Assembly (NCBI GenBank): GCA_001785985.1
Contig: MFVE01000008.1
Location: 8,751 to 72,750, forward strand
Length of the DNA stretch: 64,000 nt
Direction of reading: 5' to 3'
Origin: Candidatus Nomurabacteria bacterium RIFCSPLOWO2_01_FULL_42_17
GTDB lineage: Bacteria > Patescibacteriota > Minisyncoccia > Phycocordibacterales > UBA9973
The translations under genes and the position numbers were made by a program. Below, piece after piece: positions 4,833-62,452 of the stretch (position 1 is its first letter; each line of letters opens with the position of its first letter). The notes beneath the pieces were generated by a model, which was not told the DNA's origin, made no database searches, and was given only the letters and a program-made list of their open reading frames with translations.

Positions 4833-6383
4833 ATGAAAAAGAAAATTAATTCGGCGCTGGTTTCAGTTTTCAATAAAGACGGACTTGAGGAAATAGTCAA
4901 ATTGCTGAATAAGCATGATGTAAAAATTATTTCTACGGGCGGGACTGCGGAATTTATTCGCCAATTAAAAACTCCAGCAAAGATTCCAGTGACGGAAGTG
5001 GAAACTATCACGAATTTTCCATCTGTTTTCGGCGGCAGGGTAAAAACTCTTCAACCGCAAATTTTTGGCGGTATTTTAAATCGTCGAGATAATGCTGATG
5101 ATCAAAAAGAAAAAACTAAACACAAAATCGAAGACATCGACTTGGTAATAGTCGATCTCTATCCATTCGAAGAAACGCTCGCGAGCGGCGCGCAAGAGAA
5201 AGAAATTATTGAAAAGATAGATATCGGGGGAATATCTCTCATCCGCGCCGCCGCCAAAAATTTCAATGACGTAGTTGTCATTCCCTCTAAACATCAATAC
5301 AAAGAGCTGGCGCAAATATTAGAACGTGGTAATGAGACCAGTTTAGAAGAACGAAAAAAATTCGCGGGTGATGCATTTGAAATTACGAGTAAGTATGACA
5401 GCGCAATCCGCGGATACTTTCAGGGTACGCCTCTGCGTTACGGCGAGAATCCCCACCAGAAAGCAGAATTTATCGGAAGTTTAGAAGAAAGCTTCACCCA
5501 GCTCCACGGCAAAGAACTTTCTTATAATAATCTCATAGACACCGAGGCGGCTATCATGGCTATCTACGATTTCAAAGATCCCGCTTTTGCCATCATCAAG
5601 CATATGAATGCCTGCGGACTGGCTGTGCGAAGCGAAGGAAACAAAGAGAGTTTGTTTGAAGCCTATGAAGCGGCCTATAATGCTGATCCGATTTCGGCTT
5701 TTGGCGGAATATTGGCGGCCAATAGGATGGTGGATGAAAATATCGCCGCGCTTATCAAAAAACAAAAACTTTTTATTGAAGTCATCATCGCTCCGGACTT
5801 TTCGGAAACTGCGCTGCAAATATTAAAAGAGAAAAAAGATTGCCGAATTTTAAAATGCCTGCCCGCCGATGCCTTCGGCCTCGAGCGATGGCAGGCGGGG
5901 AAAAATCCCATGTTCCCAAATAGACAGATTCGAAGTTGTTTCAATGGTTTACTTGTCCAAGACAGAGACAGCCATGTCGAAAGTGAAGCAGATTTAAAAA
6001 TTGTTACTAAACGCGCACCGACAGAAAAAGAAAAGGCTGATCTGCTCATCGCAGCGGTAGCGACTAAACATTTGAAATCCAATTCCGTAGCCCTAGTAAA
6101 GGGTGGCACGCTCATTGCCATGGGTTGTGGACAAACATCCCGCATCGACGCACTCAAGCAAGCGATCAACAAAGCCCAAAAGTTTGGTTTTTCTTTAAAG
6201 AACGCAGTGCTTTCTTCAGAAGCCTTTTTTCCATTTCCTGATTGCGTGGAACTAGCGGCCCAATCCGGCATCTCGGCCGTAATTCATCCCGGAGGTTCAA
6301 AGAATGATCAAGCGTCTATCGACATGGCGAATAAATACAATATGGCGATGGTCACAACTGGCTTTCGACATTTCAAACACTAA
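4833..6383 (+). CDS. purH: Bifunctional AICAR transformylase / IMP cyclohydrolase
   Basis: 516 aa. MGS-like N-terminal domain (ISTGGTAEFI) and an AICARFT C-terminal domain. Contains one copy of the 40-bp hairpin element at 5858-5900. Confidence 0.92.
   Translation: MKKKINSALVSVFNKDGLEEIVKLLNKHDVKIISTGGTAEFIRQLKTPAKIPVTEVETITNFPSVFGGRVKTLQPQIFGGILNRRDNADDQKEKTKHKIEDIDLVIVDLYPFEETLASGAQEKEIIEKIDIGGISLIRAAAKNFNDVVVIPSKHQYKELAQILERGNETSLEERKKFAGDAFEITSKYDSAIRGYFQGTPLRYGENPHQKAEFIGSLEESFTQLHGKELSYNNLIDTEAAIMAIYDFKDPAFAIIKHMNACGLAVRSEGNKESLFEAYEAAYNADPISAFGGILAANRMVDENIAALIKKQKLFIEVIIAPDFSETALQILKEKKDCRILKCLPADAFGLERWQAGKNPMFPNRQIRSCFNGLLVQDRDSHVESEADLKIVTKRAPTEKEKADLLIAAVATKHLKSNSVALVKGGTLIAMGCGQTSRIDALKQAINKAQKFGFSLKNAVLSSEAFFPFPDCVELAAQSGISAVIHPGGSKNDQASIDMANKYNMAMVTTGFRHFKH
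5858..5900 (+). repeat. Copy D of the ~40-bp GC-rich hairpin element (CCTGCCCGCC-[mini-hairpin GCCTTCGGC]-GGCAGGCGGGG). Sense orientation inside purH, encoding LPADAFGLERWQAG.
   Basis: Shares the CCTGCCCGC...GCAGGCGGGG termini with copies at 24754, 57916 and 62329. Locally about 70% GC against a genome background of about 35%. Confidence 0.6.
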
Positions 6384-6798
6384 TTTTAATTTAGATCGCT
6401 TAATTGCAAAAAATGATTTAAGTGATATTATTTGTATGGCTTCTGTTCTTTATGTAATTCTAAGAATGGAGGTCATAGACACCAAAACCAAGGAGAGAAA
6501 GGGAACGAAAAAATGGAGACTCAAGAAAACCAAAACTCGGAACCGACATCAGATTCGGTTCCATTGGTTCCAGCCCACGAGCTGGCAGATGGGGAAGTGT
6601 TGCTCAGAATGGCTCCTCCATCGGACTTCCAAATGCCTGTAGGCATTAAGTCGTTCGGAGGGGGATAGAAATCTCCAAAAGTAGATCAAAGGGGTCGACG
6701 GTTCACGCTGTCGACCTCCTTTTTATTTTATTTCATTTATTTTTGCCGAGTTGTTTTATATTTAAATAATGTTAAGATAATCTTAAGATAAAATTGCA

Positions 6799-7317
6799 AT
6801 GAAAAACCTAAAAATTGGAATAATTATGGGCTCAGATTCGGATCTAGAAGTAATGGCTGAAGCAGCGAAAGTGCTAGAAGAATTTAGCATACCTTACGAG
6901 ATTACTGTCGCTTCTGCGCACCGTTCACCAGAAATTGTACATAAATACGTGACTAGCGCCAAAGACAGAGGACTTAAGATCATCATCGCCGGCGCCGGCG
7001 GAGCGGCGCATCTGGCAGGCGTGGCTGCTTCGCTCACTACCTTGCCAGTAATCGGCATTCCAATGAAAGCAAAAAGTTTAGACGGGCTTGATTCGCTTTT
7101 ATCCACTGTCGGAATGCCCCCGGGAATACCTGTCGCCACTGTTGGAATAAATGCCGGGAAAAATGCGGGAATTTTAGCGGTACAAATACTAGCGACCTCT
7201 GGAAAAGATTTAGAAGATAGATTGATCGCCTACAAAGAGAAAATGAGCGGCGAAGTTGAAGCAAAAGGCAAAAAACTTTTGGAAATTGGATTTAAAAAAT
7301 ACTTGGAAAATAAATAG
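6799..7317 (+). CDS. purE: N5-carboxyaminoimidazole ribonucleotide mutase (PurE)
   Basis: 172 aa. GSDSD, SAHRSP and IAGAGGAAHL motifs. Confidence 0.92.
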   Translation: MKNLKIGIIMGSDSDLEVMAEAAKVLEEFSIPYEITVASAHRSPEIVHKYVTSAKDRGLKIIIAGAGGAAHLAGVAASLTTLPVIGIPMKAKSLDGLDSLLSTVGMPPGIPVATVGINAGKNAGILAVQILATSGKDLEDRLIAYKEKMSGEVEAKGKKLLEIGFKKYLENK

Positions 7318-7325
7318 GAATAAAA

Positions 7326-8339
7326 ATGACTAATCTTTACACAAAATCCGGCGTAAATATTAAAAAGGGCGGTGAAGTTGTGAAAAGAATAAAAAAAGAC
7401 GTCGCCTCCACACACACTCCGGCAGTGCTCCAAAATATTGGAGGATTTGGCGGGTTATACGCTCTCTCGGAAATAATAAAAAAATATAAAAATCCTGTTT
7501 TAGTCCAAAGTATCGATGGAGTAGGCACCAAGCTCTCGATAGCAAAAATGCTTAAAAAATATGATACCGTCGGACAAGATATTGTAAACCATTCTTGCAA
7601 TGACATCTTGGCGATGGGCGCTCGACCCCTGACCTTTCTAGATTATGTAGCCAACGAAACTCTGGTTTCAAAAGAAATGCAAGCGATAGTCAGCGGTATG
7701 GCAAAAGCTTGTAGAGAAGCAGGTGTGGCGCTCATCGGCGGTGAAACAGCCGAAATGCCCGGCGTATACATGAAAGGAGAACACGACATTGCTGGTTGTA
7801 TCACTGGAATCGTAGAAAAAGATAAAATCATTACCGGTGAAAAAATAAAAAAGGGCGATATAATTTTAGGTTTTCCTTCAAGTGGACTCCATACGAACGG
7901 TTTTTCTCTAGCGCGTAAACTGCTTTTAAATAAAATGACAAATAAATTGTCAGGTGAAATGATAGCGAAAACTCTGCTGAAAGTTCATATAAATTATTGC
8001 AAGCCCATTTTTTCACTTTTAGACAATGGTATTGATATAAAAGGCATTGCGCATATCACGGGCGGAGGATTTATTGAAAATATTCCGCGTATCTTACCGA
8101 AAAATCTGGATGCAGAAATTAAAAAAGGTTCTTGGCCGATGCTCCCTATCTTTCCCTATATGCAGAAAATTGGTAAAGTATCAGAGATGGAGATGTACAA
8201 GGTTTTCAATATGAGTATTGGATTAGTGATAGTAGTCAAAGAAGAAGAGAGAGAGAAAATTGAAAACATTTTAAAAAATCAAAATATTTTTTGGATTGGC
8301 AAAATTACTAAAGGAAAAGGAAAAACAAAATTAATATGA
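7326..8339 (+). CDS. purM: Phosphoribosylformylglycinamidine cyclo-ligase (AIR synthetase)
   Basis: 337 aa. PurM N- and C-terminal domains (DGVGTK, GGETAEMPGVY, HITGGG). Confidence 0.9.
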   Translation: MTNLYTKSGVNIKKGGEVVKRIKKDVASTHTPAVLQNIGGFGGLYALSEIIKKYKNPVLVQSIDGVGTKLSIAKMLKKYDTVGQDIVNHSCNDILAMGARPLTFLDYVANETLVSKEMQAIVSGMAKACREAGVALIGGETAEMPGVYMKGEHDIAGCITGIVEKDKIITGEKIKKGDIILGFPSSGLHTNGFSLARKLLLNKMTNKLSGEMIAKTLLKVHINYCKPIFSLLDNGIDIKGIAHITGGGFIENIPRILPKNLDAEIKKGSWPMLPIFPYMQKIGKVSEMEMYKVFNMSIGLVIVVKEEEREKIENILKNQNIFWIGKITKGKGKTKLI

Positions 8340-8341
8340 AT

Positions 8342-8402
8342 CCCGTTAGAAGTTGACTAATGGGAAGTTAAAAGATAAATTATAAATTTTAAAACTTCTA
8401 AC
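8342..8402 (+). promoter_or_regulatory. purM-purC intercistronic hairpin. A 13-bp perfect inverted repeat (CCCGTTAGAAGTT / AACTTCTAACGGG) ends 3 nt before the purC ATG.
   Basis: The inverted repeat was read directly. The 3' arm covers the expected RBS region of purC. Confidence 0.4.
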
Positions 8403-8405
8403 GGG

Positions 8406-9338
8406 ATGAATATCCTCAAAGAAACAAATTTTAAAAATCTAGGAGAAAAATACACTGGCAAAGTGCGAGATGTTTATAATCAAGACGATAAAGTTATTTT
8501 GATTTCAACCGACAGATATTCAGCTTTCGATCGTAATCTTGCGCTCATACCTTGTAAAGGCCAAGTGCTGACTCAAATCAGTAAATTTTGGTTCGAGCAG
8601 ACAAAAGATATTGTAAAAAATCATGCTCTGGATTTTCCTGATCCAAACGTAGTCGTAGGAGAGAAATGCACTGTGCTGCCGGTAGAAATGATCGTACGCG
8701 GATATATTACCGGCGTTACTTCGACCGCTCTTTGGGTAAATTATCAAAATGGGCAGAGGGATTTTGGAGATTTTGTTTTACCCGAGGGAATGAAAAAAAA
8801 TCAAAAGTTGGAGAAACCAGTAATTACTCCTACCACCAAATTTGAAGCGCACGACCGACCGCTCACCAGTAAAGTCATTTTGGATGAAAAAATGATAGCG
8901 CCAGAAATTTGGCAAAAAATTTGCGATATAGCTTTAAAACTTTTTACGCGCGGACAAGAGGTCGCGCTCGAAAAAGGATTGATATTGGTAGACACAAAAT
9001 ACGAATTTGGCCTCACAGCTGGTGGAGAAGTGATGCTCATAGACGAGATCCACACGCCAGATTCTTCCCGCTATTGGCAAGCCAATTCATATCAAAAAAG
9101 GATCGCCGAAGGCCTGGAACCAGAGAATTTCGACAAAGAATTTTTACGCTTGTGGTTCAAAGACAACTGCGATCCTTACAAGGACTCGGTGCTACCCGAA
9201 GCGCCAAAAGAAATGGTGCAGGAACTCTCGAGAAGATACATAAAAATATACGAACAAATCACCGGATTGCCTTTCAAGATTGAAGAGGGAAATATTGAGG
9301 AGAGAATAGAAAAAAATTTAGAAAAATATAAAATATAA
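8406..9338 (+). CDS. purC: SAICAR synthetase (long form)
   Basis: 310 aa with SAICAR_synt-family colinearity (GKVRDVY, STDRYSAFD, GLILVDTKYEFG). Confidence 0.9.
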   Translation: MNILKETNFKNLGEKYTGKVRDVYNQDDKVILISTDRYSAFDRNLALIPCKGQVLTQISKFWFEQTKDIVKNHALDFPDPNVVVGEKCTVLPVEMIVRGYITGVTSTALWVNYQNGQRDFGDFVLPEGMKKNQKLEKPVITPTTKFEAHDRPLTSKVILDEKMIAPEIWQKICDIALKLFTRGQEVALEKGLILVDTKYEFGLTAGGEVMLIDEIHTPDSSRYWQANSYQKRIAEGLEPENFDKEFLRLWFKDNCDPYKDSVLPEAPKEMVQELSRRYIKIYEQITGLPFKIEEGNIEERIEKNLEKYKI

Positions 9339-9342
9339 AATT

Positions 9343-19351: not shown

Positions 19352-19372
19352 TGTAGACGTCCGACGTCTACA
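19352..19372. repeat. REP1 palindrome copy (TGTAGACGTCCGACGTCTACA), 3' flank of RAYT1
   Basis: Perfect palindrome with 10-bp arms. Confidence 0.8.
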
Positions 19373-19376
19373 AGTG

Positions 19377-20084
19377 TTAATCATCATTAAAGTGAAAGTC
19401 GATTTCTTCTAAATTATCACGTCTATCTTTAAAAGATTTCTTCCCCCTACTCTCTCGCACTATATCAATTATTTCTTTTCCGTGTCGGTAAAAATTTTCA
19501 TAACCGCCAAACCATTCAAGAAATTTATTTCCTTCTTTGGGATTTATAATAAAAAAATTACCTTTTTCATATTCTTCTTCACTACTACGCACTAATTTTA
19601 ATTTATTTTTTGAAATATTATGCACTTTATAATTCCACATTACATAAGCAAAAATCATTTCAAAATAATTTTCCTTTTCAGCATAATTTGATTTAAATTT
19701 CCCTTGAAGCAACGCTCCGCTTCGCCGATTTTTGTCATTAAAATATCTTGTGTATCCTCCTTGTAATCTTTTCATAAATTCACTGATACCGCCATCAATT
19801 TCCTGTTTTAAAATAAAATGAAAATGATTCGGATTAAGACAATATTCAACAATAGAAACCAATCTTTCTTTATTTTTAGGAATTTGGAGACGTCGGACGT
19901 CTACAAATGATTCTTGTTCGCGAAGTGCTAGTTCTAAACTTCCCACAGGATCTTTATAGGAAAATAATTTCATAGATAATAAAAATCTTGCAGCATCTTT
20001 TTCATCCATGAAAATAGAGCGCTTATCAACGCCTCTATTGTAAATGTGGAAATAAGAACCAGAAATAAAGGGATGTTTTCTCAT
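19377..20084 (-). CDS. IS200/IS605-like HUH (Y1) tyrosine transposase of the REP-associated (RAYT/COG1943) type
   Basis: 235 aa. YHIYNRG first-strand block, HUH motif NHFHFIL, and a C-terminal LLQGKFKS...Y..AYVMWN helix region matching the LWQ.R(F/Y)..H...YIH.NP catalytic-Tyr region of RAYTs. Paralogous to 54271-55026. Confidence 0.7.
   Translation of the reverse strand: MRKHPFISGSYFHIYNRGVDKRSIFMDEKDAARFLLSMKLFSYKDPVGSLELALREQESFVDVRRLQIPKNKERLVSIVEYCLNPNHFHFILKQEIDGGISEFMKRLQGGYTRYFNDKNRRSGALLQGKFKSNYAEKENYFEMIFAYVMWNYKVHNISKNKLKLVRSSEEEYEKGNFFIINPKEGNKFLEWFGGYENFYRHGKEIIDIVRESRGKKSFKDRRDNLEEIDFHFNDD
19888..19908. repeat. REP1 palindrome copy (GAGACGTCGGACGTCTACA) embedded in-frame in RAYT1, encoding VDVRRL
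   Basis: Near-perfect copy, read directly. It lies about 200 bp from the gene's 5' end in the loop between the YHxYNRG block and the HUH motif. Confidence 0.8.
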
Positions 20085-20100
20085 ATCTTTAGTATATCAT

Positions 20101-20121
20101 TGTAGACGTCGGACGTCTACA
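20101..20121. repeat. REP1 palindrome copy (TGTAGACGTCGGACGTCTACA), 5' flank of RAYT1 / 3' flank of murG
   Basis: Perfect palindrome. Confidence 0.8.
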
Positions 20122-23526: not shown

Positions 23527-24390
23527 ATGTGCTATTGTTTTCAAGTGAAAAAACATATTTCTAAACTTGCATTGTCTTTCGCCACATTTCTTTTTGTATT
23601 CCTGTTGTTTACACCCTACTTTACGACAGACTTCATGGATTTAAGACAGCAAAAAGAAAACGAGGAAAATTATCAAAGATTTCTGCAAGAAAAAATTGCG
23701 CAAGAAATTGCAAAAAGAAACGCTGAAGACAAAATCTACTTGACTGGCAAATTTGACCCGAATCTGCGGGAAGATTTTGCTCTGGTGCCCTCACAATACA
23801 ACATCGCCAGATACAAGATGTATTTAAGAAAAGAGACTTTGGATGCTTTTGGGGACATGGCAGAAGCTGCCGCAAAAGATTCTATAGAATTGAATATAAC
23901 TTCCGCTACCAGAAATTTTGATTACCAAAAAGATCTCTGGAATAGAAAGTGGGACAGCACGACGTTGGCAGAAAAAAAAGATCTATCAGAAGACATGCTC
24001 GATGAGATAAAGAGGTTTAAGAAGATATTGGAATATAGCGCTGCTCCCGGCACATCTAGACATCATTGGGGCACAGAAATAGATATTAATAGCGTAACTC
24101 CAAAATTTTTTGAGACAAGCGAGGGTAAAAAAGTATACGAATGGCTCCAAGTAAATGCTCCCGTCTTCGGATTTTGCCAGACTTATAATGAAAAGGGTGA
24201 AAGCAGACAAGCCGGGTACAACGAAGAAAAATGGCATTGGTCCTATATGCCACTGTCCCGAACTCTCACGCAAGAATATAAAAAATTGATAAAAGATGAA
24301 GACATCACAGGATTCTTGGGCGACCAATATGTCCCCGCTTTAAATTTAATCAATAATTATGTACTCAACATCAATCCTGATTGCTTTTAA
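23527..24390 (+). CDS. Peptidase M15B (VanY/D-Ala-D-Ala carboxypeptidase-like), secreted or anchored
   Basis: 287 aa. N-terminal TM or signal segment. SATRNFDYQ and AAPGTSRHHWGTEIDI zinc-ligand motifs of M15B. Confidence 0.7.
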   Translation: MCYCFQVKKHISKLALSFATFLFVFLLFTPYFTTDFMDLRQQKENEENYQRFLQEKIAQEIAKRNAEDKIYLTGKFDPNLREDFALVPSQYNIARYKMYLRKETLDAFGDMAEAAAKDSIELNITSATRNFDYQKDLWNRKWDSTTLAEKKDLSEDMLDEIKRFKKILEYSAAPGTSRHHWGTEIDINSVTPKFFETSEGKKVYEWLQVNAPVFGFCQTYNEKGESRQAGYNEEKWHWSYMPLSRTLTQEYKKLIKDEDITGFLGDQYVPALNLINNYVLNINPDCF

Positions 24391-24964
24391 CTTCTTCCTC
24401 TAAATTCTTTGCCGCAACATCTATGGAATTTATAACTTCAGCATAGCCGGGCAGTTCTTCTACTGATTTTATACCCATAAAGGAGATCAGCTCAAAACTT
24501 GGTTTGTAGATAAAGCGCCTATTGTCTTTCGGATCTGTTATTTTTTCTACCAGCCCGCGGACGGACAAAGCGCGCAAGGTGAAGCTCGAATTCACGCCCC
24601 GGATATAATCAATCTCGGCGCGGGACACTCCATTTTTATAAAGCACAATAGACAGTGTTTCCAGACTTGCCTTGGAAAGTTCTTTATTCAGTTCTTCTTT
24701 CTGTAAATTCTCAATCAGATCGGACAACTCTGGCGCCGTGCCGAGCATAATTTCCCCGCCTGCATCAGCTATGCTTGAAGCATTGCGGGCAGGTTTTTCT
24801 TTTTCCAACAAAACTATCCCCCTGTCTTTTAAATTTTCTTTTAATTTTTCTACACCTTTGTTTATTTCTGTCTCTTCAACTTTCAAAATCTCCGAAAGTT
24901 TTTTACGTGCAATCGGCTCCCCTTTCCAAAATAATATAGCTTCTATCTTTTTTTCTATTTCCAT
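24371..24964 (-). CDS. scpB: Segregation and condensation protein B
   Basis: 197 aa with tandem winged helices (IEAILFW...). Carries one copy of the 40-bp element, encoding PARNASSIADAGG, at 24754-24794. Confidence 0.85.
   Translation of the reverse strand: MEIEKKIEAILFWKGEPIARKKLSEILKVEETEINKGVEKLKENLKDRGIVLLEKEKPARNASSIADAGGEIMLGTAPELSDLIENLQKEELNKELSKASLETLSIVLYKNGVSRAEIDYIRGVNSSFTLRALSVRGLVEKITDPKDNRRFIYKPSFELISFMGIKSVEELPGYAEVINSIDVAAKNLEEEVKSNQD
24754..24794 (-). repeat. Copy A of the ~40-bp GC-rich hairpin element, sense-oriented in scpB and encoding K-P-A-R-N-A-S-S-I-A-D-A-G-G
   Basis: Plus strand CCCCGCCTGCATCAGCTATGCTTGAAGCATTGCGGGCAGG. Inner mini-hairpin ATGCTT-G-AAGCAT. Confidence 0.65.
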
Positions 24965-49501: not shown

Positions 49502-51610
49502 TTATTCTAAAATCTTCCGCAAGACATCTTCTGGAACTTCTTTTACTTTTTCAGCCTTAGGTTGACCAGCCTCGGGCTGGGGTTTTTGAGGTATAGAAAT
49601 GGGTAGAGGAGATGGCGCAGTTTTTGATGAAATTAAATCCTTCAATTTATTCATATCCTCCGAGCTCGCGGCGCGATCAGAGCCTGTGTGGATAGGCTTG
49701 GCAGAGACAGATTCTTTTATTTTTTCTTTTAGGGCATCAAGTGAAACAGGTGCTGGAACGGGTTCTTTTATCACTGATTTCTGTGGGGCAGCTCCGTCAC
49801 TAGTGATTTTATTTAGCACTTCTCGTAACGCTAAATTTTCCTCACCGGTGCGGGCAGGTTTCGGCTTTGGAGCTATGAAAACTTTTTTAATAGCCCCGAG
49901 AATCCCAGGTTTGGGATTGATATTAGAATGAATCGTATTTGAATGCGTACCTGCTCTAAAAGGAGGCTTAACCCATTTTTTATCTAGATGATGATCCTCC
50001 CTCTCTGGATATCTTTCTTTTTCTTCATCAATATTTTTTTCCTTTTTCTCGAATTCTATACCCAAATCGGCTAGTGGTTTGAAAAAAGTGACCTCATCAT
50101 GCTTGATCTGATTTTCGGAGCCTTTTTCTACCTTTACTTCGCCAGATTTTATTTTAGCGATGCAATCTTTGCAATAAACAGCTCGGCCCGGATCGGGTTT
50201 GAAGGGCACGGTCGTTTCTTTTTTGCAGAGCGAACAAATAGCTGGAAATTTTTCTAGATTTCCGCTTCCAGTGTCGGACTCGTTGCCGAGGGACATTCCG
50301 CTCCAATTATTGATCTCTCTCTCCACCACTTCTTTGCTCTTGCAGTAAAGGGCGCGCGAAGAACGGATCACTTCTTCTTCGATCTTTTTATCGCCGGACT
50401 TCACTAGAGGTGGCAAAGTTTTGGCGGAAAAGGGACGAGAAGTAACCCCGTCGATCATCAGCTTTAGATAAATTTTATAATTCGGCAAGTTTACTATGTC
50501 TTGCGGGGTGAATTCCGGGTCAAATTCGGGCTCTAAAAATTCTGCATCGTCCGCCCCAACCCGGAAAACTATCGTCGTACCAACGTTGCCGAAAACGGCG
50601 TCTCGCACAGCTGAACTTTTATCTACTACGAGCTGAGCAGTATATTGATGGGCTACGGTGAGGTTGAGTCTGTATTTTCTAGCTTCCGAAAGAATTCCGG
50701 CGAATGCGTCCGTCACGAAATTTTGAAATTCATCCACAAAAAGATAAAAATCTTTTCTACTTTCTTCGGGAATACGCACCCGTTCCATCGCCGCTAGCTG
50801 AATCTTGGTAATGATCATACCGCCCAGAAGCCCGGAATTGTCTTCACCAATGCGCCCTTTGGAAACGTTTACTAAAAAGATCTTGCCTTCGTTCATCATG
50901 TCAAAAATATTTATCGTGCTTTTGGATTGACCGACGACATTTCGAATGATGCTGGTGGAGAGAAATTGCCCGACTTTATTTTGAATCGGCGCGATTGCTT
51001 CGTTTCGAAATTTATCCTGCCAGGCCTCGTATTCGTGTATCCAGAAAGCCTTGATGACCGGATCTTTTAAATTAGAAATTATTTTTTGGCGGTAATCTTT
51101 GTCCACCAACATTCTGGGGATACCGAGGAGAGTCGTACCCGGAGTGTCGAGTAAGGCCAAAATCGCATTGTTTAAAATATATTCCATTCGAGCGCTCCAA
51201 GCATTCGCCCAAATTTTAGTAAAAATTCCCATCAGACCCGAAGCCACCAAATGTTTGTATTGCGGATCAATCAATTCTAAAACATTAAAGCCGATATGAT
51301 GATCTGCGTCGGCTGGATTGAAATAGACGACGTCTTTGACGCGCTCGGGTGGAATGGCCGACAGGACTGCTTCGACATTTTCTCCATGAGGGTCAACCAT
51401 GCAGACCCCATCTCCATTTTTGATATTCTGAATAATCATGTTGAACATCAAAGCCGATTTACCTGTGCCGGACTTTCCAAGAATATAAACATGCTGACGC
51501 CTGTCTTTGCGCTTGATGCCAAAAAGCTGATTCCTGTCGCGATAAGTGCTGACTCCGAGATAGGTAATCTCCTTATTCTGAGGTATTTGGGGTATTTCTG
51601 GCAGATCCAT
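49502..51610 (-). CDS. Soluble HerA/FtsK-superfamily P-loop ATPase, copy B, with a C-terminal zinc ribbon and a Pro/Lys-rich tail
   Basis: 702 aa. Walker A ILGKSGTGKS then MVDPHGEN, Walker B LFVDEFQN, AHQ motif. The C-terminal ribbon CSLCKKETT...VYCKDCIAK matches the C-terminal ribbon of the Cys-rich proteins. Confidence 0.7.
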   Translation of the reverse strand: MDLPEIPQIPQNKEITYLGVSTYRDRNQLFGIKRKDRRQHVYILGKSGTGKSALMFNMIIQNIKNGDGVCMVDPHGENVEAVLSAIPPERVKDVVYFNPADADHHIGFNVLELIDPQYKHLVASGLMGIFTKIWANAWSARMEYILNNAILALLDTPGTTLLGIPRMLVDKDYRQKIISNLKDPVIKAFWIHEYEAWQDKFRNEAIAPIQNKVGQFLSTSIIRNVVGQSKSTINIFDMMNEGKIFLVNVSKGRIGEDNSGLLGGMIITKIQLAAMERVRIPEESRKDFYLFVDEFQNFVTDAFAGILSEARKYRLNLTVAHQYTAQLVVDKSSAVRDAVFGNVGTTIVFRVGADDAEFLEPEFDPEFTPQDIVNLPNYKIYLKLMIDGVTSRPFSAKTLPPLVKSGDKKIEEEVIRSSRALYCKSKEVVEREINNWSGMSLGNESDTGSGNLEKFPAICSLCKKETTVPFKPDPGRAVYCKDCIAKIKSGEVKVEKGSENQIKHDEVTFFKPLADLGIEFEKKEKNIDEEKERYPEREDHHLDKKWVKPPFRAGTHSNTIHSNINPKPGILGAIKKVFIAPKPKPARTGEENLALREVLNKITSDGAAPQKSVIKEPVPAPVSLDALKEKIKESVSAKPIHTGSDRAASSEDMNKLKDLISSKTAPSPLPISIPQKPQPEAGQPKAEKVKEVPEDVLRKILE

Positions 51611-54167: not shown

Positions 54168-54270
54168 ACGCGATAATTATATACCCATCTTTAATTTTTA
54201 GCAAGTTTTTCGTGACCACGAAATACTTGTCAAAAGTTAGTACATAGTATAAGATATAACATGTCAACTT

Positions 54271-54291
54271 GTGGAGGACGGTCCTTCACAG
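54271..54291. repeat. REP2 copy (GTGGAGGACGGTCCTTCACAG), 5' flank of RAYT2
   Basis: One mismatch from a perfect palindrome. Confidence 0.75.
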
Positions 54292-55026
54292 TATGATATA
54301 AATATGCAACGACCTCATACATTTTCTATCGACGAGTACTATCATTTATATAATCGCGGAACTGACAAGAGATCTATTTTTCTAGATGTTAATGATTATC
54401 ATCGATTTATTATGCTTCTCTATCTTTGTAATACAATCGAGCCATTTGATATGCAAAAGATTTTCCGCACTAACGGTGAAGGACCGTCCTTCACAGAAAT
54501 ATTTAAACTTCATCGAGGTCAGCCCATTATTTCCATAGGCACCTGGGTACTCATGCCAAATCATTTTCATCTATTGGTAAAAGAAATAGCTGAAGGAGGA
54601 ATCACGACATTCATGCGAAAAGTGAATACTGGATATTCAATGTATTTTAATAAAAAATATGGGAGAACGGGAAATCTATTTCAGGGAAAATTTAAATCAG
54701 AACATGCCGATAATGATAATTATCTTAAGTATCTTTTTTCATATATCCATCTTAATCCAATAAAATTAATCAGAGGCGAGGATAACTGGAAAGAAGTTGG
54801 AATTACAAATCTAAATAATGCAAAAGATTTTTTATCTAAATATGAATACTCAAGTCTGCCTAGTTATCTAACTATAAAGACTAATTTTAACAAAATTATT
54901 CAGAAAGATTTATTCCCTGAATATTTTCCTGATCCAAATAATATATGGGATGATATGACAGAATGGCTTACTTCTAAAAAAGAACCCGAAGAAAAAATTA
55001 TGAAGGACGGTCCTTCACAGAAATAA
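54271..55026 (+). CDS. IS200/IS605-like HUH (Y1) tyrosine transposase of the REP-associated (RAYT/COG1943) type, paralogue 2
   Basis: 251 aa. The start may be the internal Met at 54304. YHLYNRGTDKRSIF block, HUH motif NHFHLLV, and LFQGKFKSEH...YLFSYIHLNPIKL matching the RAYT catalytic-Tyr helix. Peptides GEGPSF and KDGPSQK are encoded by REP2 copies. Confidence 0.75.
   Translation: MEDGPSQYDINMQRPHTFSIDEYYHLYNRGTDKRSIFLDVNDYHRFIMLLYLCNTIEPFDMQKIFRTNGEGPSFTEIFKLHRGQPIISIGTWVLMPNHFHLLVKEIAEGGITTFMRKVNTGYSMYFNKKYGRTGNLFQGKFKSEHADNDNYLKYLFSYIHLNPIKLIRGEDNWKEVGITNLNNAKDFLSKYEYSSLPSYLTIKTNFNKIIQKDLFPEYFPDPNNIWDDMTEWLTSKKEPEEKIMKDGPSQK
54475..54498. repeat. REP2 copy (GGTGAAGGACCGTCCTTCACAGAAAT) embedded in-frame in RAYT2, encoding GEGPSFTE
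   Basis: Perfect 8-bp arms. Same loop position as the REP1 copy in paralogue 1. Confidence 0.8.
55002..55025. repeat. REP2 copy (TGAAGGACGGTCCTTCACAGAAAT) overlapping the RAYT2 stop
   Basis: Perfect palindrome. Confidence 0.8.
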
Positions 55027-55030
55027 AAAA

Positions 55031-55558
55031 ATGAAAAACAAAAAACAGAATTACAAAGAAAAAATATTAAATTTATTGTCGGAAAGAACTGCAGTCTCTT
55101 TTACTGAGATTAATAGATTCGTGAAGGACGGTCCTTCACAGAAATACGCTGTAACCCGTTCAATAAAGGGCTTGAAGGAGGCTGGACTAATAGAACAAAT
55201 AGCATCTCCGCAAAACGAATACGCTCGTTTGACAAAAGAGGGGCAAAAAAAAGTACATATTTTAAAATTAGATAGTGATACGACACTGGTGAATACCACT
55301 TGGGATGGATTTTGGAGAATTATTTTGATAGATCTGCCAGAAGACAGAAAAAGTGAACGCGAAAGTCTACGTTACCTTCTAAAAAAAGCCGGCTTCGTCT
55401 GCTTGAAGAATTCTGCTTGGATCTCCCCTTTCCCCTTTGAACATTTGTTCACGAATATAAAAAAAGACTTGGGACTAAGAGAAGAAATGATGATCATTGT
55501 CACCGAATTTGTGGACGAAGAGACAAAAAAATTTCTATTTGAAACTTTCGGGAAATAA
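55031..55558 (+). CDS. PaaX-family-like transcriptional regulator (N-terminal winged HTH and a C-terminal PaaX_C/Cas2-like domain)
   Basis: 175 aa. wHTH ILNLLSERTAVSFTEIN...VTRSIKGLKEAGLIE. C-terminal WDGFWRIILIDLPEDRKSERESLRYLLKKAGFVCLKNSAWISPFP matches the PaaX C-terminal pattern W.G.W....D.PE...R..LR..L...GF..L..S.W.SP. Carries an in-frame REP2 copy (VKDGPSQK). Confidence 0.55.
   Translation: MKNKKQNYKEKILNLLSERTAVSFTEINRFVKDGPSQKYAVTRSIKGLKEAGLIEQIASPQNEYARLTKEGQKKVHILKLDSDTTLVNTTWDGFWRIILIDLPEDRKSERESLRYLLKKAGFVCLKNSAWISPFPFEHLFTNIKKDLGLREEMMIIVTEFVDEETKKFLFETFGK
55122..55146. repeat. REP2 copy (GTGAAGGACGGTCCTTCACAGAAAT) in-frame within the PaaX-like gene
   Basis: Perfect palindrome. 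Confidence 0.8.
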
Positions 55559-57340: not shown

Positions 57341-57964
57341 TTATTCTCTATACTCATACACATTCACTCGCGCTGGGCGCATCACTCTATCGCCCAACTT
57401 GTAGCCTTTTTGAATTACACTTGAAACTGCATGATCGAGTTCCTTTTTATCGGTTGCCATCAATTCCATGGACTGATGAATGTTAGGATCAAACTTTTCC
57501 CCTACTTCGCCTATAGGTTTCACTCCATATTCTTCAAAAACTGTATTCATCTGTCCGTAGATATATTCCACACCGCGTCTCCAATTCTCATCCACTTTCT
57601 CCCATGCCTCACGGTTAGCGAAAGCCATATTGAAACTATCCACCACCGATAGAAAACGGGTCAAAATCCGCTCGCGCATTGATTCGGAAAACATCGCTTT
57701 GCGATCATCCTCGCCTTTTTTGTAATTGGCAAATTCCGCCCGCTCCTTCTGCCAGCCAGTAAGATATTCTTCCTTCTCCTTTTTGCACGCTTTCAAATCT
57801 TCCCTAAATTTCTTTAGAGTCTTTTTTAAATCTTCTTCCCCATCTTCATTGAATTCAAATTCCAAAACTTCAGAATCAGTTTCTGGAACTATATTTTCAG
57901 GATCTTTTTTAATTTCCCCGCCTGCATCGTTATGCGAAGCATTGCGGGCAGGTTCATCAGACAT
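57341..57964 (-). CDS. grpE: Nucleotide exchange factor GrpE
   Basis: 207 aa with the GrpE coiled-coil and beta-domain (DPNIHQSM, GYKLGDRVMRPARV). The N-terminal tail carries 40-bp element copy B, encoding EPARNASHNDAGG. Confidence 0.9.
   Translation of the reverse strand: MSDEPARNASHNDAGGEIKKDPENIVPETDSEVLEFEFNEDGEEDLKKTLKKFREDLKACKKEKEEYLTGWQKERAEFANYKKGEDDRKAMFSESMRERILTRFLSVVDSFNMAFANREAWEKVDENWRRGVEYIYGQMNTVFEEYGVKPIGEVGEKFDPNIHQSMELMATDKKELDHAVSSVIQKGYKLGDRVMRPARVNVYEYRE
57916..57953 (-). repeat. Copy B of the ~40-bp GC-rich hairpin element, sense-oriented in the grpE 5' end
   Basis: Plus strand CCCCGCCTGCATCGTTATGCGAAGCATTGCGGGCAGG. Inner GCGAAGC mini-hairpin. Confidence 0.65.
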
Positions 57965-57977
57965 AAATGCATTTTAG

Positions 57978-58136: not shown

Positions 58137-58152
58137 GCAGGCCGGCTGTTTT

Positions 58153-58572: not shown

Positions 58573-58582
58573 ATTGCTGATC

Positions 58583-58954
58583 TTAATCAGTTATTGTTAA
58601 ATGCTTCATCATTGTCCTGCGCAATTTGTTTGCTGGCAACATCTGCTCAGTGGCCAGCCTGATCAATTCTTTCAATCCTTTTTTCTCGGCTGTTTCGGTA
58701 CCTTTCAAAATACGCAATCCTCCGGGAATACCAGAATATCTGGTATGATAAATACTTTCCAATTTTTTTGCGGTAATGCTAAGCTTGGAAGCATTCACAA
58801 CTTTTACCGGAAACCCAGAATATTTGTTGCGCTCAAAACTAGGCGAGGTCTTGCCCATGAGAGACATAGCCACCTCGCTCGCCACTCGGCCCAAGGTTCT
58901 ACCACTCGCATCTATTGTTTTCTTTTCTTTAATTTTTTTGTTTTCTTTTTTCAT
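58583..58954 (-). CDS. rplM: 50S ribosomal protein L13
   Basis: 123 aa. GRTLGRVASEVA...YSGIPGG pattern. Confidence 0.92.
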   Translation of the reverse strand: MKKENKKIKEKKTIDASGRTLGRVASEVAMSLMGKTSPSFERNKYSGFPVKVVNASKLSITAKKLESIYHTRYSGIPGGLRILKGTETAEKKGLKELIRLATEQMLPANKLRRTMMKHLTITD

Positions 58955-58997
58955 ATTTTTTATTTCCTAAGCTACAAGCTAACCAGCTACAAGCTGT

Positions 58998-59351
58998 TTA
59001 TACAAATTCTATTATTGCCATTTTCGCGCCATCCGACTTTCTCGCCCCTAATTTCAAGACTCGGGTATACCCTCCTTTTCTGTCTGTATATTTCGGCGCG
59101 ATCACATCAAAAAGCTTTTTAACTTCGGGTTTGCGATTGAAAAGTGAAGAAATTACGATTCGACGAGTTGCTGCATCGCCCTTTTTTGCGCTGGTAACCA
59201 ACTTCTCGATAAAAGGTCGCAATTCTTTCGCCTTTGGTTCTGTAGTCCTGATTTTTCCGCGCACGATCAAATTGAGCGCCAAAGAATTTATCAAGGCCTT
59301 CCTGACTTTCCTAACTCTGCCGAATTTTCGTTTGTTATTGCCGTGTCTCAT
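58998..59351 (-). CDS. rplQ: 50S ribosomal protein L17
   Basis: 117 aa. MRHGNNKRKFGR...TTEPKAKELRP. Confidence 0.92.
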   Translation of the reverse strand: MRHGNNKRKFGRVRKVRKALINSLALNLIVRGKIRTTEPKAKELRPFIEKLVTSAKKGDAATRRIVISSLFNRKPEVKKLFDVIAPKYTDRKGGYTRVLKLGARKSDGAKMAIIEFV

Positions 59352-59352
59352 A

Positions 59353-60339
59353 TTAATCTTTTAAATTCAAGCCGAATTTGCCAAGCACTTTTTTAATCTC
59401 CGAAATTCCTTTTTCTCCAATGCCTTCGACTTCCAAGAGATCCTCTCTCTTCTTTCGAGCGAGCCCGCCTAGAGTGCGGATATTTGCCCCCACCAAAGCG
59501 TTTAGCGTCCTGGTAGAGAGCTCCAAACTGTCAGTCCTAGTCTTCAAGACATCGGCAAAGACTTCACTTTTTTTCGCATCGCCGCCCTCTTCCTTCTCTT
59601 TCGAGGCATTTGCAGTCGTGGCTCCGGTTCCTCCCTCTGTTGGAGCTGGTTCTTTGAAGTCAACGATGGCCTTTAATTGATTGATCATGATAATTATAGA
59701 CTGTGAAAGAGCTTCGCGAGCCGAGAGTGTGCCGTCTGTCTCGATGGAGATTCTTAAACGATTGTGGTTAGTCTTGTCGCCCACACGCATATTTTCAACT
59801 TCATAAGAGACTCGACGAATTGGGGTAAAAATAGCGTCGACAGCGATAGTGCCGACATCCACTTTTTCTTTCTGGAAAACTTCCTTAGAAATAAATCCTA
59901 GCCCCTTCTCTATTTTCATTTCGATATTTAAATTGATTTTTCCGGTAACCTCCACGATATGAAGTTCTGGATTTAAAATCTCTACTTGTCCGCCCGTTTT
60001 TATATCTCCTGCCGTCACTGCCTTTGGGCCTTTGATCGAGAGGGTGACTGTCTGAGGTTCGTCAGAAAGCATTTTGAAACGAGTCTTTTTTAAATTTAAA
60101 ATCATTACAATTACATCTTCTTTGATGCCATCGAGTGTCTGAAACTCGTGGCTGACGCCCTCGATCTTGATCGATGTGACACTGGCGCCAGGAAGTGAAG
60201 AGAGAATAATCCTGCGAAGACTGTTTCCGAGAGTATGACCATACCCCGGATAGAGACCATCTATCTCAAACACTCCTTTATTTCCCTCTTCCACTACGAC
60301 ACGAGGCTTTGAAGGCATAATTATTTTGTATTCGGACAT
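59353..60339 (-). CDS. rpoA: DNA-directed RNA polymerase subunit alpha
   Basis: 328 aa with an alpha-NTD (GYGHTLGN) and alpha-CTD HhH. Confidence 0.92.
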   Translation of the reverse strand: MSEYKIIMPSKPRVVVEEGNKGVFEIDGLYPGYGHTLGNSLRRIILSSLPGASVTSIKIEGVSHEFQTLDGIKEDVIVMILNLKKTRFKMLSDEPQTVTLSIKGPKAVTAGDIKTGGQVEILNPELHIVEVTGKINLNIEMKIEKGLGFISKEVFQKEKVDVGTIAVDAIFTPIRRVSYEVENMRVGDKTNHNRLRISIETDGTLSAREALSQSIIIMINQLKAIVDFKEPAPTEGGTGATTANASKEKEEGGDAKKSEVFADVLKTRTDSLELSTRTLNALVGANIRTLGGLARKKREDLLEVEGIGEKGISEIKKVLGKFGLNLKD

Positions 60340-60395
60340 AATTTTAAAAAGTTAGCTTTTAATTTTTCCACCTTTGGCGGAAATAATATTAATAA

Positions 60396-60998
60396 TTATC
60401 TACTATAAAATTCCAACACGGCATTCAGGTCAATAAAGCTTTCTGTATTTTTTGGCTTATCCAAAACTTTACCCTCCATACTGCCGACATCAAAACTAAG
60501 CCAAGCTGGAGGATTGTAATCTTTTATTTTTTCGGCTATGTTACTAAAAATTTTCTTTGCTTTCGACCCTTCGCGTATTTTTATAACATCTCCGGACTTC
60601 AACCCATAGGACGGAATGGTAACTCTCTTGTCATTCACAATAAAATGTCCGTGGGAAACCATTTGCCTAGTAGAACGGCGAGAACTTCCTAGGCCCATTC
60701 GGTAAACTGCATTGTCTAGGCGAGACTCAAGTTCTTCAAAAAGCGTCGTCGCTGTGCCAGAGCCCCTGCTACTAATAGCCTTCTTGACATAGTTTGAGAG
60801 CTGGCGTTCGGTGATGCCGTAAGAAAAGCGTATTTTTTGTTTTTCGATCAGCTGCGCTCCATATTCCGAAGGAGCCTTTGGACGACGCGCATTTGGAGAC
60901 ATCGAAGCAGAGGCAGCTGAAAATTTAGCAGTCTGACATTTGTCGTATACCCCGGGGCCTAATCTTCGGCAAATTTTAAATTTTGGTTTACTTATCAT
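60396..60998 (-). CDS. rpsD: 30S ribosomal protein S4
   Basis: 200 aa with an S4 domain. Confidence 0.92.
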   Translation of the reverse strand: MISKPKFKICRRLGPGVYDKCQTAKFSAASASMSPNARRPKAPSEYGAQLIEKQKIRFSYGITERQLSNYVKKAISSRGSGTATTLFEELESRLDNAVYRMGLGSSRRSTRQMVSHGHFIVNDKRVTIPSYGLKSGDVIKIREGSKAKKIFSNIAEKIKDYNPPAWLSFDVGSMEGKVLDKPKNTESFIDLNAVLEFYSR

Positions 60999-61043
60999 TG
61001 ATTTAGTTGAAAGTTATAAAGTTCATAAAGTTAAAAGTGCAAA

Positions 61044-61481
61044 TTAAACCCTGCGAGGTTTTTTTGCTTTCGGTCCGTTGTGAGGCACTGGCGTACTGTC
61101 GGAGATAGAAGTGATCTCAATCCCATGCGCCATGAATGCTCGAATTGCGGGCTCCCGACCAGACCCGACTCCTAAAACCATCACATCCGCATCTTTTACT
61201 CCTAGAATTGCTGCTTTGCTCCCGATCACATCCCCTACCTTCGAAGCCGCAAAAGGAGTTCCCTTTTTTGCCCCTCTAAAACCCAGAGACCCGGCACTGG
61301 ACCAAAACAATGTATTGCCTGCCTTGTCTGCAAAAAGCACTTTGGTATTATTGAAAGTAGCTTCAATCGAAAGAATCCCGGAAATCACTTTCTTTTTGGG
61401 TGTCTTAGGCACAACAACTTTCTTCTCTGCTTCTGTTGTTGCCTCTTCTTTTTTTATTTCTGTTGTTTTTTCTTTTGCCAT
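61044..61481 (-). CDS. rpsK: 30S ribosomal protein S11
   Basis: 145 aa. Lys/Glu-rich N-terminal extension and the GSGREPAIRA signature. Confidence 0.92.
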   Translation of the reverse strand: MAKEKTTEIKKEEATTEAEKKVVVPKTPKKKVISGILSIEATFNNTKVLFADKAGNTLFWSSAGSLGFRGAKKGTPFAASKVGDVIGSKAAILGVKDADVMVLGVGSGREPAIRAFMAHGIEITSISDSTPVPHNGPKAKKPRRV

Positions 61482-61522
61482 GTCAACTTTTCACTTTATG
61501 AACTTTATAACTTTAAACTCAT

Positions 61523-61903
61523 CTACGTCTTTGTCTCTTTTCTCTTACCTGATGCCATCGTCTTTCGGACATTGCCCCGAACGGTTCTGGAATTTGTCTT
61601 GGTTCTCTGGCCTCTGACTGGCAATCTCTTCATGTGGCGAATCCCTCGGTAACTTTTAATATCTTTCAATCTTTTAATATTGGCAGATATTTCCCTTTTT
61701 AAATTTCCCTCTATTAAAACACTTTCGATAACCACGCGAATTTTATTCTCTTCATCCAAAGATAGATCTTTCGCTTTTTTGCCGCGATCGATCCCCACCT
61801 GATCTAAAATTTTACGCGCTTTTGGAATGCCAATGCCATAGAGGCAAGTCAAGCCAATCTCAAGTCTCTTTTCATTTGGTACTGTGATTCCTAAAATTCT
61901 CAT
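61523..61903 (-). CDS. rpsM: 30S ribosomal protein S13
   Basis: 126 aa. MRILGITVP...LTCLYGIG. Confidence 0.92.
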   Translation of the reverse strand: MRILGITVPNEKRLEIGLTCLYGIGIPKARKILDQVGIDRGKKAKDLSLDEENKIRVVIESVLIEGNLKREISANIKRLKDIKSYRGIRHMKRLPVRGQRTKTNSRTVRGNVRKTMASGKRKETKT

Positions 61904-61911
61904 ATTTCTGA

Positions 61912-62022
61912 TTATTGCTTTTGTTTATGCTTTGGATTAGAGCAAGTGATCCGCAGGTGCCGCTCGCGTCTGACCATTTTACAATTATCACAGATTTTTT
62001 TTACTGCTGATCTAATTTTCAT
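61912..62022 (-). CDS. rpmJ: 50S ribosomal protein L36 (36 aa, below the ORF-track cutoff)
   Basis: Hand translation of the minus strand gives [36 protein letters not shown], with the C-x2-C-x12-C-x4-H zinc ribbon. The position between rpsM and infA is canonical. Confidence 0.85.
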
Positions 62023-62176
62023 AAAATATTTCAAAAATAACTTAAGAATAACTAAAAAAAGAAAAACAAGGAAAAAACCCTTATTTTTCAATCTATTTTC
62101 TTTTTAAAACCGCAGTTAAACGGTAGTCAATATGATACACTATTCCGTAAAAAATTACAAGCCAAATTGACTAAAG

Positions 62177-62452
62177 CTACAACCTTTTGATTATTCTTCC
62201 TTTTCCTCCATAAGAATCAAGCACGACTTCGACCGCATCTCCGATCAAGACCTTGATCCTATGCATACGCATTTTCCCTGAAAGGTAAGCTAAAATTTCC
62301 TGCTCAGTATCTATTTCATTTTTGTCGTCCCCGCCTGCAACGCTTTGCGTAGCATTGCGGGCAGGTATCTTCACTCTAAACAAGGTGCTGGGCAGAGCTT
62401 CGGTGACAATTCCTTTCACCACCGACAATTTTTCATTTTTTTGGTCACTCAT
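62177..62452 (-). CDS. infA: Translation initiation factor IF-1, carrying a roughly 20-aa insertion in the beta2-beta3 turn encoded by 40-bp element copy C
   Basis: 91 aa against the usual 72. The S1-like OB fold (LPSTLFRV...LSGKMR...IKVLIGDAVEVVLDSY) is interrupted by PARNATQSVAGGDDKNEIDTEQ. Confidence 0.88.
   Translation of the reverse strand: MSDQKNEKLSVVKGIVTEALPSTLFRVKIPARNATQSVAGGDDKNEIDTEQEILAYLSGKMRMHRIKVLIGDAVEVVLDSYGGKGRIIKRL
62329..62366 (-). repeat. Copy C of the ~40-bp GC-rich hairpin element, sense-oriented in infA
   Basis: Plus strand CCCCGCCTGCAACGCTTTGCGTAGCATTGCGGGCAGG. Inner GCGTAGC mini-hairpin. Confidence 0.65.

Follow-up and report, generated by a model that had tools for sequence, protein, structure and literature searches.

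A 36-nt GC-rich hairpin in frame within unrelated genes of Patescibacteria: a probable selfish element linked to the gene of a small GIY-YIG nuclease, its candidate mobiliser

Introduction

Why should one GC-rich hairpin recur, in frame and on the coding strand, inside four unrelated housekeeping genes of the same bacterium? The question is raised by a stretch of 64,000 nt from Candidatus Nomurabacteria bacterium RIFCSPLOWO2_01_FULL_42_17 (contig MFVE01000008.1, positions 8,751 to 72,750; the whole of this stretch is called the window hereafter), in which purH, scpB, grpE and infA each contain a copy of the hairpin, to which the working name E is given here. An earlier description of this DNA, made without database searches (the sequence-only reading), had likened the hairpin to the palindromic elements of Rickettsia and had offered two explanations for it, a miniature selfish element or a structured mRNA motif. 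The analysis presented below indicates that E is very probably a selfish mobile element whose insertions are filtered through the peptide that they encode. In its complete form, the interpretation that E is a tiny non-autonomous selfish mobile DNA element, filtered by selection and with a GIY-YIG nuclease as its likeliest mobiliser, is considered likely. Patescibacteria, also known as the candidate phyla radiation (CPR), have minimal genomes, and their proteins are known for unexplained insertions.

Four copies of the element in the window

The four copies and their host genes are the following:

5858..5899, plus strand: E in purH, 42-nt variant (CCTGCCCGCC...GGCAGGCGGG), frame +2, peptide LPADAFGLERWQAG
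24755..24793, minus strand: E in scpB, 39-nt variant, frame 0, peptide PARNASSIADAGG
57917..57952, minus strand: E in grpE, 36 nt, in the N-terminal tail after MSDE, frame 0, peptide PARNASHNDAGG
62330..62365, minus strand: E in infA, 36 nt, in the loop between beta2 and beta3, frame 0, peptide PARNATQSVAGG
4833..6383, plus strand: host gene purH (Pfam AICARFT_IMPCHas and MGS)
24371..24964, minus strand: host gene scpB (Pfam SMC_ScpB)
57341..57964, minus strand: host gene grpE (Pfam GrpE)
62177..62452, minus strand: host gene infA, encoding IF-1 (Pfam eIF-1a/IF-1)

The pattern CCTGCCCGC-N(10-35)-GCAGGCGGGG has four matches in the window, against none expected from shuffled sequence, and a covariance model run with its filters off recovers the same four copies and no others. 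Neither this model nor the scanning of GC islands detected further copies in the window, and the 20 kb of the source genome lying beyond the window ends hold no extra copy, which gives four copies in about 84 kb. All four are in the sense orientation and in frame in purH, scpB, grpE and infA. The places given for them by the sequence-only reading were thus recovered by both searches, Pfam bears out the identity of PurH, ScpB, GrpE and IF-1, and the claims that every copy lies on the coding strand of its host and encodes KPARNASSIADAGG, EPARNASHNDAGG or IPARNATQSVAGG, or LPADAFGLERWQAG in the other frame used by the purH copy, are also confirmed. The background GC content had been put too low, at about 35%; that of the window was measured at about 0.34-0.45, with a mean of about 0.40. 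IF-1 had been described as about 20 aa longer than usual because of the insert. The extra length (about 19 aa) is real, but only 12 of these residues derive from the element, and an alignment of orthologues assigns the remaining ones to a lineage-specific long loop which is present also in insert-free orthologues.

A fifth exact CCTGCCCGC lies at 49850-49858 on the minus strand, within an open reading frame (ORF) at 49502-51610 (minus strand), where it is read as KPARTGEE and has no 3' arm. The protein concerned is a TraG/VirD4-like coupling protein with a treble-clef zinc finger, and the motif falls in its low-complexity tail at the C-terminus; this lone arm is probably a chance occurrence or a decayed remnant.

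Boundaries, length and fold of the element

The limits of E were drawn from an unbiased set of copies, obtained in a metagenome scan anchored on the inner motif AATGCTNCGCAWAGCGNTGCAG only, with arms and flanks left free. Among the matches listed, 102 of 119 copies have an exact 5' arm CCTGCCCGC, and the 3' arm GCGGG shows about 94% conservation per position, while the base that follows it is G in 31%, C in 31%, A in 19% and T in 18%. Since this next base varies, the fourth G belongs to the flank and the element ends at ...GCAGGCGGG; the boundary proposed earlier, which took in the final G, is therefore abandoned, and the copies of the window measure 42, 39, 36 and 36 nt, all of them multiples of three. 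E is accordingly an element of 36 nt (12 codons) with variants of 39 nt, as in scpB, and 42 nt, as in purH, made up of whole codons throughout and encoding 12-14 aa.

Both strands of E fold better than shuffled sequences (z-scores of -2.2 to -4.3), and as single-stranded DNA (ssDNA) or RNA the element forms an imperfect GC-rich hairpin. In the 36-nt form, the outer stem CCTGCC/GGCGGG contains an invariant T.G pair and is followed inwards by a C/A mismatch, a short GCA/TGC stem, an asymmetric unpaired AATGCT segment and an inner stem N-CGC/GCG-N' of 4-5 bp closed by an AWA loop. This inner stem (N-CGC-AWA-GCG-N') covaries to an extent reached by none of 500 shuffles: its first pair (16-26) is AU36/UA36/GC4/UG2, its second pair CG52/UG10/UA7/AU5, and the 39-nt variants retain a 5-bp inner stem through compensatory changes. 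The antisense strand does contain the extra-stable GNA mini-hairpins noted earlier (GCGAAGC and GCGTAGC), but that pairing register displays no covariation. The fixed irregularities of E would be typical of hairpins read by a protein. Rfam contains no match at the positions of E, either at E-values up to 1 (4 loci) or at the gathering threshold (18 loci).

Empty, filled and decayed sites

If E is mobile, sites with and without it should be found in orthologous genes, and this is what the comparisons reveal. Among 119 ScpB orthologues at 70-83% identity, 93 are empty at the site, 13 carry an intact E and 13 a variant or decayed one. At the DNA level, GAAAAG|GAAGTT in an orthologue corresponds to GAAAAA-E-GAAATT in the window: the filled site amounts to the empty one with E added and nothing duplicated. 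In two ScpB proteins (P0018 and P0048, the latter from locus L121), the insertion is shifted two codons upstream, with a DNA junction between GAAAAA and GAAAAC, and represents for this reason an independent event. A single loop of IF-1 displays every state among orthologues: empty (proteins of 77 aa), intact, shifted (P0174, P0185), nested (P0239, PARNASPARNDSRSDSGRHSDAGG) and, in many cases, decayed. The GrpE site is filled in other genomes as well (e.g. L043), and the alignment of Mycobacterium tuberculosis PurH (PDB 3zzm) with PurH of the window leaves a gap of exactly 14 residues facing the purH insert. AlphaFold models IF-1 with a predicted local distance difference test (pLDDT) score of 85-91 in the OB-fold core and below 50 in the insert-bearing loop 31-49, between strands 24-30 and 50-57, which places the insert in a loop predicted to be disordered.

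Target-site duplications, which the sequence-only reading had proposed to look for, are absent from 56 of 88 copies of the unbiased set, among the matches listed, a distribution equal to that of the shuffled control. New copies of E therefore arise by precise insertion, normally without target-site duplication, at many unrelated sites and in both orientations, and once inserted they decay at the level of both peptide and nucleotides (e.g. CCCGCCCAC in L121). The earlier suggestion of a miniature selfish palindromic element that survives in frame in tolerant loops is sustained by the presence and absence of E in orthologues, the 14-residue PurH gap, the predicted disorder of the IF-1 loop and the existence of hundreds of copies.

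Several variants were observed at or near these sites. Nomurabacteria IF-1 proteins (P0197-P0238; 62177-62452 in the window) have an acidic beta2-beta3 loop 8-16 residues longer than that of Escherichia coli IF-1, even where no E is recognisable, and earlier insertions that have decayed completely may make up this long acidic loop. PARPHDxSGAGG inserts (P0005, P0098, P0144, P0150, P0195) and PASTRGDSSTRGG or PAST... inserts (P0030, P0075, P0087, P0172, P0181, P0208) occupy the same ScpB and IF-1 sites as E; they probably represent sister hairpin families with other inner sequences. Nested or compound elements, with E inside or fused to another E or an E-like hairpin, are found at L062:4391-4439, at L254:~900-1000 and in P0239, and a CCCGCCCGC...GCGAGCGGG variant was seen in L136 and L228.

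Strand, reading frame and selection

The way in which the copies are distributed over genes was examined in 89 unique intact copies of the inner-motif-anchored set, with arms and flanks unconstrained, among the matches listed. About 60% of them are genic and 36 (~40%) lie outside long or credible ORFs, an excess of non-coding copies (P = 5e-14) over the 10% expected in E-bearing genomes, which are about 90% coding. The 53 genic copies comprise 44 in sense (83%) and 9 in antisense, and the sense copies are spread over phases 0, 1 and 2 as 39/0/5 (89% in phase 0; P ~1e-19 against a uniform distribution over frames). Phase 0 yields the peptide PARNASHSDAGG, with a grand average of hydropathy of -1.1, 92% small or polar residues, no Cys and no stop. 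Phase 1 contains a TAG stop, and the frames other than 0 are hydrophobic, Cys-rich or interrupted by stops in common variants. Length variants not divisible by three were seen exclusively away from frame-0 positions in genes. The bias in strand and frame, combined with the free decay seen in orthologous copies, speaks for purifying selection acting on the peptide that E encodes rather than for an RNA function or frame-aware insertion, and a weak insertion preference may add to the frame bias.

Insertion of E in a fixed orientation into a purine-rich target, AAA|GAA, was evaluated as another source of the bias. It predicts 74% sense copies and phases of 68/13/20%, values near those observed in the set of copies anchored on GGGG. 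This target was rejected as the main cause because the fourth G had been imposed by the search pattern and the bias persists when flanks are variable. Replication-strand bias was considered too as a source of the orientation; in loci of 8 kb it is confounded with the composition of the coding strand.

Distribution across lineages

The search beyond the window that had been proposed with the first description found near-identical copies in unrelated genes and genomes: at least 118 loci in a scan of one genome per species and at least 119 in the metagenome scan, more than 230 together. The hosts are mainly Patescibacteria (Nomurabacteria, Paceibacterota, Saccharibacteria, Microgenomates, Berkel-, Magasanik- and Moranbacteria, and further Falkow-, Collier-, Levy-, Shapiro- and Staskawiczbacteria). 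E is present also on long contigs labelled Prosthecobacter, Kiritimatiellia, Lentisphaerae and Verrucomicrobiia, which are metagenome-assembled genomes of the Planctomycetes-Verrucomicrobia-Chlamydiae (PVC) group, and an in-frame copy in CysS lies on a contig of 60% GC. Secondary copies appear in E-bearing loci at about one per 50 kb. The near-identity of E across deep lineages implies either ongoing horizontal spread or strong recognition constraints. No published description of E was found in the searchable literature by its literal sequence, by its peptide or under CPR palindromic elements.

Carriage by phages was considered and rejected, as only 1 of 2.9 million viral contigs matched E and the viral nature of that contig is itself doubtful. 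This contig (L123, from IMG/VR) is GC-rich and holds three copies of E with no clear long genes around them.

Two other associations were noted among these loci. A longer GC-rich palindrome, GCGCGGCGGGTGG-E-GGGGCGCCGCGC, bears a 37-nt variant (...GCGATAGCAGGCGGG) at its tip at L074:4840-5960 and also in L028, L100 and L118; the GCGCGGCGGGTGG/GGGGCGCCGCGC flanks recur in four Microgenomates-type genomes, and in L074 two inverted units of this kind bracket about 1 kb with small ORFs, like a composite element. Genes for four-helix-bundle '23S rRNA-intervening sequence proteins' (PF05635) recur in the E-bearing loci L022, L093, L161 and L179 (e.g. L093:3095-3514), and the one in L161 begins 64 nt downstream of a copy of E.

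A cassette of tRNA, hairpin and GIY-YIG gene

What could move such an element? ORFs from about 235 E-bearing loci were clustered to find recurrent neighbours, and the commonest neighbouring family, present at 21 of these listed loci, is a protein of 75-100 aa with a GIY-YIG domain (PF01541, E-value 2.8e-15); its homologues P0241-P0360 are also GIY-YIG proteins according to precomputed Pfam assignments. Of 22 such genes, about 10 have E at 3-25 nt upstream of their start codon, in either orientation, and the gene abuts a tRNA gene. The order of this cassette is [tRNA nt 1 to ~9-15] - E - [next 9-12 nt of the same tRNA] - spacer of ~10 nt - GIY-YIG ORF of ~78 aa - [intact tRNA], with tRNAs for Val, Lys, Thr, Ile, Gln, Asn and Leu. 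Examples are found at:

L066, 6860-7530
L243, 890-1320
L245, 890-1320
L249, 570-1040
L252, 890-1320

An independent sample consisted of seven nuclease homologues, picked by protein similarity and length of available sequence alone. In all seven (11 loci), E is located upstream, whether intact, reversed, nested or decayed, and a tRNA gene lies 4-40 nt downstream.

The duplicate of the tRNA 5' end in the cassettes is 20-28 nt long and is split by E in the D-arm. Two cassettes stand in tandem in L066, and behind those of L249 and L250 come 2-3 tRNA-Gln genes in tandem. Insertion of E inside whole tRNA genes was also considered; when the copies were removed in silico and the sequences submitted to ARAGORN, no tRNA was predicted across any junction, and the flanks turned out to be the 20-28-nt duplicates.

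That random insertion should strike a remnant of about 25 nt so often is not credible; therefore, E is either a cis element of the cassette or is inserted or retained there by a process linked to the nuclease. The ~78-aa GIY-YIG nuclease can be put forward, tentatively, as a candidate for the mobiliser of the solo copies of E.

Proposed mechanism and significance

The life cycle of E would proceed as follows. In genomes that are about 90% coding, most insertions would strike genes and be purged by selection, leaving as survivors the intergenic copies and those genic copies that keep the frame in surface loops or tails. The surviving genic copies would be read in sense phase 0 as a hydrophilic, Cys-free and stop-free linker (PARNASHSDAGG). 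A length in whole codons together with a harmless frame gives E the look of an element adapted to gene-dense genomes, and an inserted copy, having no function, would drift. The likeliest mobiliser would be the ~78-aa nuclease of the cassette [tRNA 5'-end duplicate split by E] - GIY-YIG ORF - [intact tRNA], for which E would act as a cis-acting hairpin, the solo copies being derivatives similar to MITEs (miniature transposable elements with inverted repeats) or products of repair at nuclease cuts. A bolder and rather doubtful proposal is that E and the ~78-aa gene form an unrecognised bacterial mobile system, in which a structure-specific nuclease residing at tRNA genes mobilises a 36-nt hairpin. 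Such a nuclease would cut the hairpin or cruciform, or seed repair at cut sites, and would scatter 12-codon insertions through proteomes of the entire CPR and beyond. If true, this would amount to hairpin transposition without a DDE or HUH transposase, and CPR housekeeping proteins would have in it a general source of expanded loops.

Several points weigh against the main interpretation, that of a selfish element with the nuclease as its likeliest mobiliser. The outer arms are too conserved for covariation to be seen, and the outer stem rests on thermodynamics. With A at position -1 in 52% of the copies and genic flanks rich in K/E codons, the frame bias could in part be an insertion preference. 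Exact 7-nt direct repeats surround 3 of the 88 unbiased copies, against 0.06 expected (ttggaaa in L124, cgaaatc in L155 and cgtccaa in L197), and may mean that E has a second way of inserting or that it entered tandem repeats there. As for the nuclease, there is no GIY-YIG gene in the window or in its 20 kb of flanking genome, and E lies in either orientation upstream of the GIY-YIG genes. E could be a secondary insertion in a neutral tRNA remnant, kept because it breaks a direct repeat or a nuclease target. To our knowledge, a catalytic domain of 78 aa alone has no known transposase activity, and homing by double-strand-break repair needs flanking homology, which the solo insertions of E do not have.

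The recognition of E has consequences for gene annotation in Patescibacteria. A 36-nt element accounts for recurring inserts of 12-14 residues (PARNA...AGG and its decayed forms) in IF-1, GrpE, ScpB, PurH and CysS, and for thousands of CPR proteins the alignments, phylogenies and predicted structures would gain from taking it into account.

Alternative explanations

The alternative that survives best, unlikely as it is, regards E as a hairpin similar to repetitive extragenic palindromic (REP) sequences, moved in trans on ssDNA by a Y1/HUH transposase, either a REP-associated tyrosine transposase (RAYT) or an enzyme like that of the insertion sequence (IS) IS200, the link to GIY-YIG genes being incidental. 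E inserts without target-site duplication, as HUH enzymes do, and its imperfect hairpin with a fixed T.G pair, a C/A mismatch and a bulge resembles the substrates established for IS200/IS605 and REP systems. Moreover, two Y1_Tnp proteins are encoded in the window and RAYT-like ORFs are present in 6 of the ~235 listed E-bearing loci. Nevertheless, both Y1 genes of the window, like the RAYT-like genes of the other loci, are flanked by their own, different palindromes, and E never adjoins any of them, the distance being 1-2 kb or more. E has no GTAG or CGTC tag and no conserved target of 4-5 nt on its 5' side, where only A at 52% is apparent, and it is mostly intragenic. The two genes and their palindromes are:

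19377-20084, minus strand: Y1_Tnp gene, with the GTAG-tagged palindrome TGTAGACGTC.GACGTCTACA at 19352-19373, 19885-19906 (intragenic) and 20100-20121
54271-55026, plus strand: Y1_Tnp gene, with the palindrome GTGAAGGAC.GTCCTTCAC at 54270-54292, 54473-54495, 55001-55018 and 55121-55140

Each gene is bracketed by its own palindrome, with an additional copy inside the gene (regions 19352-20121 and 54270-55140), and the two loci look like distinct REP-RAYT-type units.

Decidedly improbable is the second explanation of the sequence-only reading, according to which E would be a functional structured mRNA motif (acting in stability, processing, localisation or translational pausing) whose sense orientation is kept by selection at the RNA level. 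A genic sense bias of 44:9, a fixed T.G that would be a U.G wobble in sense RNA and an A.C mismatch in the antisense strand, and a covarying inner stem are all in agreement with it. However, covariation is equally expected from a protein that recognises a DNA hairpin, and the bias goes beyond strand to a single reading frame (39/0/5, that is, 39 of the 44 sense copies). Furthermore, copies in orthologues decay freely in both peptide and nucleotides, most orthologues lack E, about 40% of the copies are outside long ORFs, antisense copies exist and both orientations occur beside GIY-YIG genes, while the host genes are unrelated and no Rfam family matches. Neither RNA-level selection as the cause of the sense orientation nor a structured mRNA motif was thus borne out.

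A third idea is that the PARNA...AGG peptide serves as a functional module, for example a site of binding or modification, gained repeatedly for the benefit of the host proteins. The strong preference for the frame encoding it and the repeated filling of the same IF-1, ScpB and GrpE loops across genomes could be invoked in its favour. It is exceedingly improbable, however: the peptide decays fast in orthologues, most of which have no insert, disorder is predicted for it, purH uses a different frame for its copy, and the conserved unit is the nucleotide hairpin, found also in non-coding, antisense and other-frame copies.

Comparison with known systems

The nearest relatives of E by behaviour are the Rickettsia palindromic elements (RPEs), palindromic repeats lying in frame in unrelated housekeeping genes of reduced genomes, compatible with protein folds and present also in non-coding DNA (PMC10969869). 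E is likewise inserted in frame in unrelated protein-coding genes at tolerated positions. RPEs, by contrast, measure about 100-150 bp and encode about 30-50 aa, whereas E has 36-42 nt and encodes 12-14 aa; RPEs are confined to Rickettsia and have no known associated nuclease, whereas E is near-identical over many CPR classes and some PVC bacteria and is physically linked to GIY-YIG/tRNA cassettes. Size and hosts, rather than a comparison of sequences, thus set E outside the RPE family. The original likening to RPEs therefore holds for the mode of action, an in-frame palindrome in tolerant loops, and fails for family membership (36 nt against ~150 bp, and other phyla). With E, what RPEs exemplify in a single genus is found across a large portion of the bacterial tree.

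With REP/RAYT systems E shares an imperfect GC-rich palindrome of 20-40 nt, a large number of copies and the absence of target-site duplication. REPs are extragenic, tagged with GTAG or CGTC and clustered around the RAYT gene (PMC3733652), whereas E ends in CCTGCC... / ...GGCGGG with variable flanks and no such tag, about 60% of its copies are genic and none flanks a Y1 gene. MITEs derived from IS elements differ in that E has no target-site duplication of fixed length, the filled site being the empty one plus E. IS200/IS605-type hairpin elements of the palindrome-associated transposable element (PATE)-like kind insert without duplication, 3' of a specific target of 4-5 nt; E also lacks a duplication, and at its -1 position there is a weak preference for A (52%), with no conserved tetranucleotide.

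In mitochondria, the GC clusters of yeast, with optional in-frame ones in var1, and the byp elements of Magnusiomyces are also short GC-rich palindromic insertions in AT-rich compact genomes, some of them inside coding sequence, in frame or otherwise tolerated. They differ from E in being organellar, eukaryotic and unrelated in sequence, and while byp elements are bypassed by the ribosome, E keeps the frame and is presumably translated. How such hairpins move is a question posed by RPEs and mitochondrial GC clusters as well, and the GIY-YIG/tRNA link of E supplies a concrete candidate.

For the cassette itself, the nearest precedent is SegB of phage T4, a free-standing GIY-YIG homing endonuclease encoded in a tRNA cluster, which cleaves the tRNA region and promotes its own inheritance (PMC2330249). 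In the CPR cassette, too, a small GIY-YIG gene stands directly beside a tRNA gene, and E is its constant component in cis (the seven homologues and about 10 further loci). Unlike SegB, the CPR proteins consist of the catalytic domain only (~78 aa) and are chromosomal, and their cassette includes a duplicated tRNA 5' end split by E. Taken together, E is best filed as a new family among the in-frame intragenic palindromic elements, separate from RPEs, REP/RAYT systems and IS-derived MITEs, and distinguished by its minimum of 12 codons, its near-identity across phylum-level lineages and its link to GIY-YIG and tRNA genes.

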